This document shows positions 26,292 to 32,170 of a stretch of DNA of 64,000 nucleotides, in pieces (within the stretch, counting starts at the first letter, position 1; every line of letters starts with the position of its first letter). Source of the stretch: Candidatus Latescibacterota bacterium (GTDB lineage: Bacteria > Latescibacterota > UBA2968 > UBA8231); the NCBI GenBank assembly GCA_965248355.1, contig OZ252098.1, positions 2,208,001 to 2,272,000 on the forward strand. Reading direction: 5' to 3'. Both the position numbers and the translations under genes were made by a program. The notes beneath the pieces are model-generated. The model was not told the DNA's origin and ran no database searches. It worked only from the letters and a program-made list of their open reading frames with translations.

Positions 26292-27073
26292 CAGACGGTC
26301 AGCCCGCCGAACCGAGGGCGGCCCCCCCCGGGGGCCAGGGTCAGGAGACTCGGTCCGTCCTCGGTGACGGCCACGGTGTGCTCGAAGTGCGCGGCGAAGG
26401 AGCCGTCCTTTGTGCGCGTGGTCCAGCCATCCTCGTCGACGACGACCTCGGCCCCCCCGAGACTGAGGATCGGCTCGATGGCGAGGACGTGTCCCGGCTT
26501 CAGGCGGGGGCCGCGCCCGGGGGCGCCATGGTTCGGCAGATGGGGATCCTCGTGCAGGTGTCGTCCGATACCGTGCCCCCCGTACTCGCGAATGACGCAG
26601 ACGCCTCCGGCCACGGCGGCCGACTCGACGGCGTGCGAGATGTCCGACAGGCGGTTCCCCGGGCGGGCGGCGTCGACGCCGGCGCGCAGGGCGGCTCTCG
26701 TCGTACCCACCAGGCCTCGGACCCGGCGGTCGACGCATCCGAGGGAGACGGTGAAGGCCCCGTCGCCGAACCACCCGTCGAGCTGCACGCCCACGTCGAC
26801 GCACAGCAGATCGCCGTCCTTCAGGGGCTCGGGACGCGGCAAGCCGTGCACCGCCTCGTCGTTGACGGAGGCGCAGATCGACGCCGGGAAGCCTTGATAG
26901 CCCTTGAAGGCCGGCTCGCCGCCGAGGTCGCGGATCGTGGTCTCGGCCAACTCGTCCAGGAGGAGTGTGGACACCCCGGGACCGGCCGCGGCCTCGAGGG
27001 CGATCTGCACTTCATGCACGACGGCACAGGCCGCGCGGATCCCTTCGATTTCGCTGGGGCTGCGACGATGCAA
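26291..27073 (-). CDS. map: Type I methionyl aminopeptidase
   Basis: FPASICASVN...HGLP, GHGIG..LHEDP, AIEP, AHFEHT; probable TTG start at 27073. Confidence 0.93.
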   Translation of the reverse strand: MHRRSPSEIEGIRAACAVVHEVQIALEAAAGPGVSTLLLDELAETTIRDLGGEPAFKGYQGFPASICASVNDEAVHGLPRPEPLKDGDLLCVDVGVQLDGWFGDGAFTVSLGCVDRRVRGLVGTTRAALRAGVDAARPGNRLSDISHAVESAAVAGGVCVIREYGGHGIGRHLHEDPHLPNHGAPGRGPRLKPGHVLAIEPILSLGGAEVVVDEDGWTTRTKDGSFAAHFEHTVAVTEDGPSLLTLAPGGGRPRFGGLTV

Positions 27074-27344
27074 GGGCCCTCGACTGGCCGGCTTGGAAGA
27101 GTGGATTCGAAGCGTAACCAAACACGGGGAGAGATTCAGTCTCGTCAAGATGGTGTCCGGCCTCTCGCCGGCCCCGGGCACCGCCCGCCCCGGGAGAGAG
27201 GCCCGAGATCTTCATTGCGGATCACTCCACCCCTGGTTATCTTGCGAGACCGGCGGCCTTGGGCGGGCCTCGTTTGGTCCCCGCCTTCAGGGCCGCGTCC
27301 TTTTTCATCCCAAGCTCTGAACAAAGCGAAACATATCACCGGAC

Positions 27345-29579
27345 ATGGGTAAATCACTCGTTGTCGTTGAGTCGCCGGCCAAGGCGACGACCATCAACAA
27401 GATCCTCGGTCGCGATTTCGTCGTGAAGTCGTGCATGGGACACGTGCGCGATCTGCCGCCGAAGGAACTCGGCGTCGACGTGGACAAGGACTTCATGCCC
27501 CGCTACGTGACCATCCGCGGCAAGGGGAAGATCCTCACCGATCTCAAACGCGCGGCGCAGAAGGCGGACACCATCTACCTGGCTACGGACCCCGACCGCG
27601 AGGGCGAGGCCATCGCCTGGCACGTGGCCCATGCGATCGCGCGCAAGGACATCGAGGTCAAGCGGATCCTGTTCAACGAGATCACGCCGAAGGCGGTCCT
27701 CCAGTCGATCAACGGGTCCGGCGTCCTCGACCTCTGCAAGGTCAACGCCCAGCAGGCCCGGCGCGTCCTCGACCGGCTCGTGGGCTACGAGATCAGTCCC
27801 CTCCTTTGGAAGGTCATTCACGCCGGTCTGTCCGCGGGGCGCGTGCAGTCCGTTGCCCTGCGCCTGATCTGTGAGCGGGACGCCGAGATCGCCGCTTTCC
27901 AGCGCCAGGAGTACTGGTCCATCGACGCCTTGCTCGGCCACGCCACCGACGACGGCGAGGCGACCTTCAAGTCGCGCGTGCTGCAGTACAAGGGCAAGAA
28001 GCTCGAGATCGCCGACCAGGAGACGACCGAAGGCATCATCGCGGCCCTCCGGGATGCGACCTTCACAGTCAAGTCGGTCAAGCATCGCGAGCAGCGGCGC
28101 CGGCCCGCGCCGCCCTTCATCACCAGCACCCTGCAACAGGAAGCGGCGCGCAAGCTGAGGTTCTCGGTGAAGCGCACCATGGCGGTGGCCCAACAGCTCT
28201 ACGAGGGCATCGAGCTCGTGGGCGAGACGGTGGGGCTCATCACCTACATGCGCACCGACTCGGTCCGCGTCTCCGACGAGGCGATCAGCGAGGTGCGCGC
28301 CGAGATTGGAAAGCGCTTCGGTCCGGAGTACGTGCCCGCGAAACCCACTGCCTACAAGACCCGCCGCGGCGCCCAGGACGCGCACGAGGCGATCCGTTCC
28401 ACCTCGGTGGAACGCACGCCCGACGAGATGAAGAAGCACCTGTCCCCCGATCAACGGCGGCTGTACGAGTTGATCTGGAAGCGCTTCGTCGCCTCCCAGA
28501 TGGAGCCCCAGGTGATGAACATCATCAGCGCCGACATCGGCGCCGGCGACTACCTGCTGCGGGCCACGGGCTCGCAGGTGAGGTTCCCCGGCTTCACCGT
28601 TCTCTACACCGAGAGCAAGGAGGAGGAGGACGAGGAGGAGAACATCCAGGTGCCGGCCGACCTGGCCGAGGGAGAGAAGCTCACCCTGAAGAAGCTGCTG
28701 CCCGAGCAGCACTTCACCAAGCCGCCGCCCCACTACTCCGAGGCGTCGCTGGTGAAGGAGCTGGAGGCCAAGGGGATCGGCCGGCCGAGCACGTACGCCC
28801 AGATCATCTCCACCCTGCAGGACCGGGAGTACGTGGAGAAGATGGACAACCGCTACTTCGAGGCCACCGAGCGCGGCCAGACGGTCAACAAGCTCCTCGT
28901 GGCCACCTTCCCCAACATCTTCGACGTCGAGTTCACGGCCCGCATGGAGGACGAGCTCGACCGCATCGAGGATGGCCAGGAGGACTGGGTCGCCTCGGTC
29001 CGCCAGTTCTACGGCTCGTGGAAGGGAACCCTCGAAGAGGCCAACGCGCGGCGCAGAGAGTTGAAGCAGTCCTTCCAGCAGGAGACCGACATCCCCTGCC
29101 AGGAGTGCGGGCGCAACATGGTCGTAAAGTGGGGACGCAACGGGCGCTTCCTCGCCTGCCCGGGGTATCCGCAGTGCAAGAACACGAAACCCCTGGAGGA
29201 ACAGCGCGAGCAGGTGAAGACCGACGAGGTCTGTGACCTGTGCGCCAAGCCGATGGTGGTGAAGACGGGCCGGTACGGCCGGTTCCTGGCCTGCTCCGGG
29301 TATCCCGACTGCCACAACGTGAAGCCCTTCTCCCTGGGCATCGCCTGCCCGGACTGCGAGGAGGGCGAGATGGTGGAGAAGCAGTCGCGCAAGGGCAAGG
29401 TGTTCTTCGGCTGCAGCCTGTACCCGAAGTGCAAGTTCGCCAGTTGGGACAAGCCGGTGGAAGGCCCGTGCCCGCAGTGCGAGGCGCCCCTGCTGTACGA
29501 GAAGGCCAGCCGCGGCGGCCCTCCTTCCCTCCACTGCAAGGTGTGCGACCGCCGCTTCGAGAACACGCAGGCCGCCTGA
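27345..29579 (+). CDS. topA: DNA topoisomerase I
   Basis: VVVESPAKA, ATDPDREGEAI, SAGRVQS, ITYMRTDS, GIGRPSTY, C4 zinc ribbons. Confidence 0.97.
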   Translation: MGKSLVVVESPAKATTINKILGRDFVVKSCMGHVRDLPPKELGVDVDKDFMPRYVTIRGKGKILTDLKRAAQKADTIYLATDPDREGEAIAWHVAHAIARKDIEVKRILFNEITPKAVLQSINGSGVLDLCKVNAQQARRVLDRLVGYEISPLLWKVIHAGLSAGRVQSVALRLICERDAEIAAFQRQEYWSIDALLGHATDDGEATFKSRVLQYKGKKLEIADQETTEGIIAALRDATFTVKSVKHREQRRRPAPPFITSTLQQEAARKLRFSVKRTMAVAQQLYEGIELVGETVGLITYMRTDSVRVSDEAISEVRAEIGKRFGPEYVPAKPTAYKTRRGAQDAHEAIRSTSVERTPDEMKKHLSPDQRRLYELIWKRFVASQMEPQVMNIISADIGAGDYLLRATGSQVRFPGFTVLYTESKEEEDEEENIQVPADLAEGEKLTLKKLLPEQHFTKPPPHYSEASLVKELEAKGIGRPSTYAQIISTLQDREYVEKMDNRYFEATERGQTVNKLLVATFPNIFDVEFTARMEDELDRIEDGQEDWVASVRQFYGSWKGTLEEANARRRELKQSFQQETDIPCQECGRNMVVKWGRNGRFLACPGYPQCKNTKPLEEQREQVKTDEVCDLCAKPMVVKTGRYGRFLACSGYPDCHNVKPFSLGIACPDCEEGEMVEKQSRKGKVFFGCSLYPKCKFASWDKPVEGPCPQCEAPLLYEKASRGGPPSLHCKVCDRRFENTQAA

Positions 29580-30547
29580 TCCAGACGGCCTCCCTGAGCC
29601 GGCATACCGCCATCGAGACGGGCATCGATCGATTCCTCGTCTCCCTGGCCGAGGCCGGTCCTTTCGGTCGATCGCCCCTCCGCCCCGGGACCCGGCGCGC
29701 CTACGGCGTCGACCTCGACCAGTTCGCCCGCTTCCTGCACACCCGTATCACCGCGCCCACCGTGGCCAATGTCCCCACCGAGGCGGTGGCGGCCTTCGCC
29801 CGGCACCTGACCGACGCCGGCCGGTCGCCCCGCACCGTGGCCCGCAAGCTGGCCGCCGTACGCCGGCTGTTCCGCTTCTTGTGCTCGCAGGGGGTCTGTC
29901 CCGCCGACCCTTCCACCGGCGTGCGCGGGCCCCGTCCGTCCGACGACCCGGCCCCCCTCACGCCCGAGGAGATGCGCGCCCTGCTGGCCCGGCCCGAGTT
30001 GGGCTCCTTCACCGGCGCCCGGAACCGGGCCCTGCTGGAGCTGCTCTACGGCGCCGGCCTGCGGCTCTCGGAAGCGGTGGGCCTGAACCTGAGCCACCTC
30101 GGCTTGGCCGACGGTCGTCTGCGGCTCACCGGCCCCACCCCCCGCGCCGTTCCCCTGGGACCGCAGGCGACGGAGGCGCTGCAGGCCTACCTGCTGCGCC
30201 GGGCGGAGGCGCTCCTGGCGCGGTCGATCTCCTCCGTCGACGCCGGCGCGCTCTTCGTCAGCGCCCGCGGGCGCCGCCTGCATCCGCGCTCGATCCAGCG
30301 CATCGTCGAGCGCTACCTGCGCCTCCTCGAGTCACCGCCGACCTCGACCCGGACGAGGACGCCGCGCCACCGGGGCCCCGGCCAGTTGCGCGCCGCCTGC
30401 GCCCGGCATCTGGTCGAGGCGGGCGCCGACCCCGGGCTCGTCTCCGCCCTCCTCGACCGAAGGCCCGCGGCCCCCCCCGACCCGAGCCGCCACCAGGACC
30501 TCTCCGAGCTGACGGCGCGCTACCGGCGGGCCCACCCGCGGGCCTGA
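29576..30547 (+). CDS. XerC-like tyrosine recombinase homologue lacking catalytic residues
   Basis: SAM-like N-terminus (TRRAYGVDL, RTVARKLAAVRRLFRF), RNRALLELLYGAGLRLSE, terminal AHPRA; catalytic K, H, H and Y absent; probable CTG start overlapping the topA stop. Confidence 0.8.
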   Translation: MIQTASLSRHTAIETGIDRFLVSLAEAGPFGRSPLRPGTRRAYGVDLDQFARFLHTRITAPTVANVPTEAVAAFARHLTDAGRSPRTVARKLAAVRRLFRFLCSQGVCPADPSTGVRGPRPSDDPAPLTPEEMRALLARPELGSFTGARNRALLELLYGAGLRLSEAVGLNLSHLGLADGRLRLTGPTPRAVPLGPQATEALQAYLLRRAEALLARSISSVDAGALFVSARGRRLHPRSIQRIVERYLRLLESPPTSTRTRTPRHRGPGQLRAACARHLVEAGADPGLVSALLDRRPAAPPDPSRHQDLSELTARYRRAHPRA

Positions 30548-30559
30548 AGGGGGTCCACC

Positions 30560-32170
30560 ATGCCGCGTCTGCTCTGCGCTGCCCTCGCCGCGGGGCTGGC
30601 CGCGGCCCTCGGCTGCGCCAAGCAGGGCCGGCCCACGGGAGGCCCGGTGGATCGGACCGCTCCGGTGGTTGTCTCCCACCGGCCCGCCCCCGACGCCACC
30701 GGCGTCGATCGACGTCAGGTGGTGACCATCGAGTTCAGCGAGGCCATGGATCGAGGGCGGACGGAGGAGTCGGTCTTCCTGGCTCCCCGAAGCGACTTCG
30801 AGGCCCACTGGAGAGGACGCCGGCTGCGCATCACGGTCCCCGGCGGCCTGGCGGAGGAGCGCACCTACGTGGTCACCGTCGGCACCGACGCCCGGGACCT
30901 GCGCGGCAATGGCCTGGAGCAGTCCTTCCAGTTGGCCTTCGCCACCGGCGGCCGGCTGGACGCCGGGAGCCTCTCCGGGAGCGTGCTGGCGGCGGATCTC
31001 GAGCCCCAGCGGGGCGCCTTCGTCTGGGCCTACGACATGGAGCTCTTCGACGGCCGCACCGGCGTCGACCCGCCGGACTACGTCACCCAGAGCGGGGCCG
31101 GCGGCGGGTTCCGCTTCGACCGGCTCGCCGGCAGCCGCTACCGGACGATCGCCTTCGTCGACGGCAACCGGAACCAGCGGCCGGACCCCGGAGAGCCCCT
31201 GGCCCTCCCCGACGAGGACAGGGTGGCCTCCACCGATGGCGAGGCCGGCGGCGGCGTGCTCGTGCTGGCCGCGAGGGACCCCGAGGTCCGCGTGCAGCGG
31301 ATCAGCGCCGTCGATCGCCGGCGCATCCTGCTGGCCTTCGAGAGGCCGGTGGATGCCGCCAGCCTGGAGGTGGAGATGGGATCTCTCGACGTTCAGGAGA
31401 TCCATGCCCACCCCACGGACCCGAGGAGGATCTATGCCGTCACCGCCGAGCAGCAGCCGGGACGGACCTACCGCCCCACCGTGCGGTTGGCCGGCCACGG
31501 CGTGGAGGTCCCCCGAGAGCCGGTACGCGGGACCGACCGGGAGGACCGCGGCCGCCCGGAGGTGGTCGGACTGGGTCCTCAGGGCCTGACCGTCGAGGCG
31601 GATTCCCTGGTTCTCACCTTCTCCGAGGCGATGGACCCGTCGGCCGTACCCTCCATGGCGGCGAGAGATACCACCTCGGCCCCTCCCCCCGGCCGCTGGC
31701 GCTGGACGGGTCCCCTGTCCCTGGCCTTCACCCCGGAGCCGCCCCTGGAGCCCGGGGCCCACCGGCTCGAGGTGCGGCTGGGCGGCCTTCGCGACCGGGC
31801 CGGCAACGCGCCCCAGGACTCGACGGCCCTCCTCGGCTTCGAGTTGCTGCCGGCCGCCGACCGGGCCTCGGTGGAGGGGAAGGCCGGGTGGCCGGCTGCA
31901 AGCGGGCCCGTTCAGGTTCGGCTCCGGCCGCCTGGCGGCCCCGCCTTGAGGGCCGACGTCGACTCGGCGGGCCTCTTCGCCTTCCCCGGGATCGCGCCCG
32001 GCACCTACAGGCTGTCCGCCTTCGTCGACCGGGACGGAGACGGAGAACACGGCGTCGGCCGCCTCGACCCCTACGCGCCGGCCGAACCGATCGCCGTGGG
32101 CCGAGAGCTGGTCCTGGAGCGCGGTCAGGGACTGTGGGTCGAGGTGCCGGAGGCGGCCCCGGCCCCATGA
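30560..32170 (+). CDS. Ig-like (Big_5-type) domain lipoprotein
   Basis: Lipobox LGC, P.GGPVDRTAP, FSEAMD repeats, DLRGN. Confidence 0.8.
   Translation: MPRLLCAALAAGLAAALGCAKQGRPTGGPVDRTAPVVVSHRPAPDATGVDRRQVVTIEFSEAMDRGRTEESVFLAPRSDFEAHWRGRRLRITVPGGLAEERTYVVTVGTDARDLRGNGLEQSFQLAFATGGRLDAGSLSGSVLAADLEPQRGAFVWAYDMELFDGRTGVDPPDYVTQSGAGGGFRFDRLAGSRYRTIAFVDGNRNQRPDPGEPLALPDEDRVASTDGEAGGGVLVLAARDPEVRVQRISAVDRRRILLAFERPVDAASLEVEMGSLDVQEIHAHPTDPRRIYAVTAEQQPGRTYRPTVRLAGHGVEVPREPVRGTDREDRGRPEVVGLGPQGLTVEADSLVLTFSEAMDPSAVPSMAARDTTSAPPPGRWRWTGPLSLAFTPEPPLEPGAHRLEVRLGGLRDRAGNAPQDSTALLGFELLPAADRASVEGKAGWPAASGPVQVRLRPPGGPALRADVDSAGLFAFPGIAPGTYRLSAFVDRDGDGEHGVGRLDPYAPAEPIAVGRELVLERGQGLWVEVPEAAPAP

Follow-up and report, generated by a model that had tools for sequence, protein, structure and literature searches.

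A putatively non-catalytic XerC orthologue retained under purifying selection downstream of topA in a Candidatus Latescibacterota bacterium

Introduction

Few housekeeping recombination systems are as conserved as XerC/XerD-dif. In tyrosine recombinases a hairpin lysine acts as the general acid and a tyrosine as the nucleophile, the two arginines bind phosphate, and in Xer proteins the C-terminal tail docks one subunit onto the next. The subject of this study is an xerC-derived open reading frame (ORF) at 29576..30547 (+) of a 64,000-nucleotide stretch, here called the window, of the genome of a Candidatus Latescibacterota bacterium (assembly GCA_965248355.1, contig OZ252098.1, positions 2,208,001 to 2,272,000). 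The product of this ORF is referred to as XerC*, and bare coordinates are those of the window. Like XerC of the XerC/XerD-dif system, XerC* is encoded after topA and has the two-domain fold, Arg I, Arg II and the C-terminal tail. It differs in lacking the tyrosine, the hairpin lysine and either histidine, and in scoring 163 bits with the XerC model against a cut-off of 335.

A single-copy recombinase gene beside a palindromic site, as in the XerS/difSL, XerH/difH and XerL systems, is likewise present in the family of the window's organism, in a slot between leuS and mutL. PMC1914069 describes xerS as preceded by its own conserved site, and PMC9765430 states that at the Legionella dif site XerL is necessary and also sufficient. 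The family differs from these systems in that the old XerC and XerD remain, under selection, with XerC apparently non-catalytic in 10 genera. It differs also in that its slot recombinase falls under the cut-offs of all named Xer models, its function being a prediction.

At dif-like sites of the terminus in Bacillus subtilis as well as in Staphylococcus aureus, XerD unloads SMC independently of XerC, according to the sources (PMC9226527, citing Karaboja 2021; PMC8357415; PMC12322038). This is a precedent for an Xer protein working at dif-like sites without recombination, but it concerns XerD, which is still a working enzyme, unlike XerC*. We know of no SMC-unloading type of role for XerC and, to our knowledge, a role outside recombination is known in model bacteria for XerD only. 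A streptococcal XerD, said to carry 'unusual active site motifs' in a title by Reichmann and Hakenbeck of 2002, is reportedly an altered-motif Xer protein kept alongside XerS; it is possibly similar to XerC*, but it is an XerD and belongs to another phylum. As in pseudoenzymes generally, XerC* keeps its fold, binding surfaces and selection with the catalytic residues erased; it differs in being the dead orthologue itself, repeatedly, rather than a duplicate. A literature search, with most subscription journals outside its reach, returned no description of a catalytically dead XerC kept by selection or of a 'pseudo-recombinase'.

Results

Active-site residues and predicted fold

Read from 29576, the ORF encodes 323 aa and ends with a TGA stop at 30545-30547. 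Both Pfam domains expected of an Xer protein were detected above their cut-offs, Phage_integrase (PF00589) at 7.7e-20 and 71.8 bits (cut-off 27.1) and Phage_int_SAM_1 (PF02899) at 5.4e-13 and 49.5 bits (cut-off 22.3). Scores for the NCBIfam models were under the cut-offs, at 163.4 bits for XerC (TIGR02224; cut-off 335.15) and 160.3 bits for XerD (cut-off 329.6). The nearest solved protein by sequence was Escherichia coli XerD (1a0p, E 4e-24), and by fold the top Foldseek matches were XerD 1a0p and XerA. The structural model, built from 15 orthologues, showed the usual two domains with a mean predicted local distance difference test (pLDDT) of 80.6. Only three stretches had values below 50, namely residues 1-3, the inserted loop at 255-262 and, at 296-306, the place of the former tyrosine helix.

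Residue states were read from an alignment to XerD 1a0p and from orthologue alignments; all features below are on the + strand. Both arginines were retained, Arg I (R163, nt 30062-30064) in YGAGLRLSE at 30047..30073 and Arg II (R272) in GPGQLRAACARHL at 30374..30412; both match the XerD arginines and are invariant in the 15-sequence alignment. The other catalytic positions were replaced. The segment RLTGPTPRAVPLG at 30122..30160, which aligns with the lysine-bearing beta2-beta3 hairpin of XerD 1a0p, has no lysine and is two residues short of the canonical hairpin. The HxxR histidine is a glycine, GPGQLRA having Gly where the His stands three residues ahead of Arg II, and on its 5' side is a lineage-specific insertion, SPPTSTRTRTPRHRG, at 30332..30376, of ~9-12 residues and modelled as a low-confidence loop. 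LLGH reads LLDR, removing the second histidine (His/Trp of LGH), and LLDRR with the Pro-rich loop PAAPPDPSRHQ (30449..30496) replaces LLGH and the tyrosine-bearing helix, leaving no tyrosine in the aligned segment. Across 10 orthologues of the window's genus the tyrosine column is R, A, K, H or S, and the replacement segment varies among subclades of one genus (DPDRGR, PEIKAV, PDRSPL).

The N-terminal SAM-like DNA-binding core, TRRAYGVDLDQFARFLH ... SPRTVARKLAAVRRLF at 29690..29872 (Phage_int_SAM_1, residues 35-106), has helices with pLDDT above 90 and invariant columns at Y43, D46, L47, Q49, R90, K91 and R96. The C-terminal helix and tail, DLSELTARYRRAHPRA (...ARYRRAHPRA) at 30497..30544, are also kept, with the helix modelled at 309-319 and Y316, H320, P321 and R322 of the tail (Y..AHPR) invariant in 15/15 aligned orthologues. 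An earlier note on this DNA, made from the sequence alone, had described a full-length XerC-like protein with Arg I and Arg II present, the hairpin lysine, both histidines and the tyrosine erased, and the N-terminal domain and AHPRA tail intact. The alignments agree with that description of residues, domain and tail. Its claim of intact length and register was borne out for the open 323-aa frame, but not for the shortened hairpin or the residues inserted before HxxR.

Because the tyrosine, the hairpin lysine and both histidines are gone, XerC* is predicted to be unable to cleave DNA. In Cre, as stated in PMC2943603, every tyrosine substitution is inactive, a Lys-to-Arg change leaves low residual activity, and the first histidine position is tolerant, Gln included. 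On these mutant data XerC* should be catalytically dead, and the XerD of the same genome at best slow. Binding of DNA or of partner proteins, with no recombination, is probably what XerC* still does.

Orthology and spread of the catalytic loss

Synteny and alignment indicate that XerC* is a vertically inherited XerC orthologue. The position after topA is held by an xerC gene in almost the whole of the window's family (f1) and in the sister families f3 and f4, whose topA-adjacent orthologues are canonical XerC with R-K-H-R-H-Y at the six catalytic columns. A search of the window's genome (G000, a single 5.5 Mb contig) with the XerC model gave only three matches: an XerD-like gene beside uvrC, xerC* and a weak third.

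In total, 84 orthologues were extracted, 39 from one set of loci and another 45 picked out of the 68 family genomes that gave a match, excluding a partial contig-end copy in G013. All 16 orthologues from sister families f2, f3 and f4 read R-K-H-R-H-Y. Within family f1 the tyrosine was kept in 44/68 (29 in genus g14, five each in g13 and g16, three in g9, one each in g11 and g4) and absent in 24/68, spread over 10 genera (10 in g1, three in g22, two each in g3, g6 and g7, and singletons in g8, g12, g15, g2 and g21). Every one of the 24 Tyr-less orthologues is full-length, with no stop or frameshift; Arg II is kept in 24/24 and Arg I in 22/24. All 10 orthologues of the window's genus are without Lys, both His and Tyr, the nine other genomes sharing these losses at 54-85% identity; intact residues in close relatives, which the earlier note had named as refuting, were thus not seen in the genus. 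On a topA tree of 24 genomes with unresolved basal branches, the tyrosine state changed at least four times, with at least three losses if regain is excluded. This suggests at least three independent events of tyrosine loss in the family.

Beyond the window's family, dead XerC was judged from a sample of 108 homologues; 107/108 XerC/D-like proteins from other phyla were R-K-H-R-H-Y at the six columns, against which the altered pattern of XerC* goes beyond chance. The lone exception, from an uncultured Oscillospiraceae metagenome-assembled genome (L083), reads R-D-Q-R-H-F, and dead Xer proteins may therefore exist elsewhere. A related-locus search with an alignment query returned only distant canonical XerC genes of other phyla, and one with the single XerC* protein returned four close relatives and distant ones. 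In genus g10, the XerC* query matched no XerC orthologue in 2/2 genomes.

Selection on XerC*

Ratios of nonsynonymous to synonymous substitution rates (dN/dS) were calculated pairwise by the Nei-Gojobori method among the 10 orthologues of the window's genus. For XerC* they were 0.13-0.42 over all pairs and 0.21-0.34 for pairs with dS 0.06-0.37, compared with 0.11-0.33 for XerD and 0.04-0.23 for topA. Bootstrap 95% intervals, computed for six pairs, stayed under 1 both over the gene as a whole and over either domain. In the zone from HxxR to the tyrosine position, the interval was below 1 in five of the six pairs; in the sixth the upper bound, over 61 codons, was 1.04. These values indicate that purifying selection is keeping XerC* as a folded two-domain protein, in line with the earlier proposal of a pseudo-recombinase kept by selection rather than of random decay.

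In two genomes of the window's genus (G005 and G008) the native topA is cut to its first 16 codons, which are fused in frame to an intact XerC* (L012 ~1087-1183 and L013 ~1405-1500). The other topA-like genes found there are at most 45% identical to the window's topA, which, together with the remnants, suggests replacement of topA by gene displacement.

XerD and the dif-like sites

The earlier note had raised the question of an intact XerD and a dif site elsewhere in the genome. The xerD gene lies beside uvrC (L001 1498-2517 (-) = G000:C1:321237-322253) and scores 255 bits with the XerC model and 300 bits with the XerD model. It retains both arginines, the LGH histidine and the tyrosine, but not its hairpin lysine or HxxR histidine, so this partner is intact only in part. 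Among family XerDs the hairpin lysine was found at the aligned place in 4/22 and the tyrosine in 22/22; sister-family XerDs were canonical in 8/8.

For dif, a dif-like locus was found. The exact pattern searched, a short motif that we take to be the dif core, occurs once in the window's genome, at 1,057,660. With up to two mismatches, 6/13 dif-like matches genome-wide fell within 1.2 kb around this position; the six are four distinct sites, two of them matched on both strands. The cluster lies at the cumulative GC-skew maximum, a placement made for G000 only, and the distance between it and the window is 1.18 Mb. In the sister families each genome carries a single canonical dif, nnnCGGTATAA-GATACA-TTATGTAAACT, in agreement with the dif predicted for one Gemmatimonadetes genome in PMC3025954. 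SMC (1010 bits) and FtsK with its gamma domain are also encoded in the window's genome.

A complex of the catalytic domains of XerD and XerC* was predicted with a score of 0.40, against 0.00 for the best of three controls, in a range (up to 0.60) where predictions are wrong more often than right. The mark applied was reached by 116/157 solved complexes and 2/215 mismatched pairs. The runs agreed in at least 86% of contacts, with partner pLDDT of at least 77. Likeness to solved tyrosine-recombinase assemblies may be the cause of the pass.

Recombinases of the leuS-mutL slot

The dif-like cluster of the window's genome surrounds another recombinase gene. Between leuS and mutL, a segment at G000:C1:1057607-1058800 (= L003 1226-2446) holds a Cre-like recombinase (gene at L003 1402-2361) and the four dif-like sites (G000 1057612, 1057660, 1057729 and 1058800), of which the palindromic one just upstream of the gene is one. 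By eye the protein is intact (R, K, HxxR, W, Y), and among solved proteins it is closest to Cre (E 2e-19). A Cre-like protein was detected in only 12/41 relatives and 12/76 family genomes, in the slot only in G000 and genus g22 (3/3), which rules it out as a family-wide replacement. The three g22 genomes (L292, L293, L294) have 4-12 Cre-like matches each, and their Cre-like gene is judged from these copies to behave also as a mobile or multi-copy gene.

In most relatives the slot is occupied instead by a third tyrosine recombinase, intact and 314 aa long, exemplified by L184 1540-2484 (-) and found in the same slot in L196-L209. This protein was under every named Xer cut-off (XerC 126 bits, XerA 107, XerS 73). 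It was found in 60/76 family genomes and 0/16 sister-family genomes, once per genome, although in G004 and G008 the copy is broken across two contigs or pieces, and full-length copies share 57-82% identity. At 130-600 bp upstream of the gene start there is a palindromic 11-6-11 site, TAACGATAA-N6-TTATCGTTA. At up to two mismatches, this site was present in 14/19 gene-bearing genomes of the first sample, usually as the sole such site per genome. Dif-like sites stand on both flanks of the slot recombinase gene in most family genomes and are canonical-looking around the third recombinase. The third recombinase and its palindrome are a candidate for a new single-recombinase module of Xer type.

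The six Tyr-less genomes without the third recombinase comprise four with the Cre-like type in the slot, one with a Cre-like fragment and one with neither (G003, 76% complete). A first reading, made on 24 family genomes, in which XerC loss tracked the third recombinase was not upheld in the larger set. At the level of families, the one with slot recombinases also shows erosion of XerC and of the XerD lysine, and the three sister families have neither. The slot recombinase is read as a permissive background for catalytic loss in XerC rather than as an established cause of it.

Two further observations were made during these searches. In one genome (G023:C2, e.g. 1134278-1156259, 1839013 and 2422549), 14 scattered sites share one arm of the palindrome, TGAGGATAAGATAGGTTATCGTTA and variants, and may represent a repeated element with a mimic of the site. 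The PDB chain 9i5v_14 (401 residues) bears the name 'Ribosome-associated translation inhibitor RaiA', but some 230-270 of its residues align with tyrosine recombinases (E 1e-15 and 8e-14); its name and sequence seem mismatched.

Gene neighbourhood, start codon and transcription

The gene 5' of xerC*, in the same transcription unit, is topA, encoding a type IA DNA topoisomerase of 744 aa (27345..29579, +) with Pfam Topoisom_bac (2.2e-123), Toprim and three Zn ribbons. The candidate start region of xerC* spans 29543..29578 (+). It contains an in-frame GTG at 29543, inside topA, and a CTG at 29576-29578 that overlaps the topA stop TGA (29577-29579); no in-frame ATG, GTG or TTG follows 29576 until far downstream. 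In close relatives a GTG start lies ~27 nt past the topA stop. This spacer is gone in the window, with CTG at the equivalent place, and either CTG 29576 or GTG 29543 would therefore be the start. The earlier suggestion that xerC* is translationally coupled to topA is plausible given the overlap, but position 29576 offers no usual start codon and the start itself is unproven.

Downstream, 13 nt past the xerC* stop, begins a gene (30560..32170, +) for a protein of 536 aa whose N-terminus resembles that of a lipoprotein and which contains two Big_5 Ig-like domains. The G+C content of the region is 69-77%.

A missing transcript would have counted against the earlier note's reading; contigs from RNA libraries of two studies, from a strain ~98% identical, cover parts of xerC*. 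Three bridge the junction between topA and xerC* (28648-29730, 29381-29734 and 29388-29692), one lies inside xerC* (29934-30142) and one links its 3' end to the next gene (30479-30922). The stretches ~29735-29930 and 30220-30460 had no cover, a pattern from which contigs cannot show absence. Half or more of the words sampled from the stretch were contained in 15 public runs. A promoter scan of 27000-30800 found none, and no terminator-like site was found between topA and xerC*, the only one being ahead of topA; both results are weak evidence either way.

Discussion

The explanation that we favour, and consider reasonably probable, is that XerC*, an XerC orthologue that is dead yet under selection, serves as a non-catalytic partner of XerD at the dif-like sites of the terminus. 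Expressed from the topA operon, XerC* would sit on XerC-type half-sites, within the dif-like sites of the leuS-mutL slot, and join XerD there without contributing catalysis. Its part would be that of a structural or allosteric partner, or of a DNA-architecture factor marking the terminus. The strand exchange that resolves dimers would then be left to XerD alone and/or to the separate intact slot recombinase. The latter is Cre-like in the window's genome; in most relatives it is Xer-like, and a palindromic 11-6-11 site stands next to its gene.

Several observations weigh against this explanation. The hairpin of XerD reads GRGARER (Lys to Arg) and its HxxR histidine is Gln, in 10/10 genomes of the window's genus; with its own lysine and histidine lost, a XerD/XerC* heteromer may be nearly inert. 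A search of the nine other genomes of the genus for the exact dif core pattern gave 0/9, and the complex score for XerD with XerC* is weak. The start codon of XerC* in the window's genome is non-canonical. The RNA contigs are assembled and derive from a relative, carry no information on strand or level, and may reflect DNA carry-over. Lastly, the third recombinase is present in 18/24 Tyr-less against 36/44 Tyr-bearing genomes; given this lack of association within the family, any 'takeover' of the function by the slot recombinase depends on one between-family contrast. With an altered XerD and a separate recombinase at the terminus, the simple dimer-resolving 'half-dead heteromer' suggested by the earlier note is therefore one of several possibilities.

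A broader scheme, which we put forward tentatively and regard as possible at best, is that the window's family is midway through replacing its system of dimer resolution. An exchangeable cassette between leuS and mutL, carrying either the new Xer-like or the Cre-like recombinase, each with its own palindromic site, would resolve dimers, and XerC and XerD would be kept as a non-recombining pair that marks the terminus. Under such a scheme, catalysis by XerC would have been lost repeatedly and completely and the XerD lysine lost in most genera, with the pair serving, for example, SMC unloading or FtsK-linked segregation.

It is unlikely, if still worth weighing, that XerC* has become a DNA-binding protein unrelated to dif and XerD, such as a transcription regulator or a co-factor of topoisomerase I that uses the fold as a DNA clamp. 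Persistence of xerC in the topA operon across the class, the abutting start in the window, selection of equal strength on both domains and the independence of tyrosine loss from slot-recombinase state within the family would all be consistent with such a change of function. However, an invariant docking tail and the retention of both phosphate-binding arginines are not expected of a simple repressor, and survival of the gene without an adjacent topA body in G005 and G008 implies no dependence on topA adjacency.

We give a low probability to XerC*, with or without XerD, being an accessory subunit of the terminus recombinase, whether Cre-like or third, that would bind the dif-like sites on its flanks and thereby control or direct how the palindromic site recombines. 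The arrangement of dif-like sites on both sides of the recombinase gene in most family genomes would fit this, as would the count of 23/24 Tyr-less genomes that have the third recombinase (18), a slot Cre-like gene (4) or a Cre-like fragment (1). However, the third recombinase stands alongside a fully canonical XerC in 28/29 g14 genomes, and with two unrelated types of slot recombinase a specific contact would need to evolve twice.

Activity of XerC* through a non-canonical nucleophile and general acid is highly improbable. The two arginines are kept and an invariant tyrosine, Y316, lies near the C-terminus, but Y316 is equally invariant in canonical orthologues that also have the normal tyrosine. 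The segment replacing the tyrosine helix is variable between subclades and modelled as disordered, and the tyrosine is irreplaceable in Cre according to PMC2943603.

Least credible of all is a recently inactivated gene that is disappearing, or else an error of assembly or sequencing: the non-canonical start, the ease with which open frames arise at 69-77% G+C and the failure to find an orthologue in g10 (where outright loss may also occur) point that way, but recent decay is rejected by dN/dS values well below 1 together with the RNA-library cover, and a frameshift or sequencing error is ruled out by the same changes in nine other genus genomes and an alignment in register to the last residue. 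The 15 public runs also count against this reading.

Returning to the favoured explanation, the repeated loss of catalysis under continued selection implies that XerC would have a task for which strand exchange is not required. The f1 lineage would thus supply natural 'separation-of-function alleles' of XerC. The family with the dead XerC also points to a putative, previously undescribed gene-plus-site recombinase module at the terminus. If dimer resolution is indeed being replaced in this family, XerC* would be the first XerC-derived pseudo-recombinase with a cellular function.

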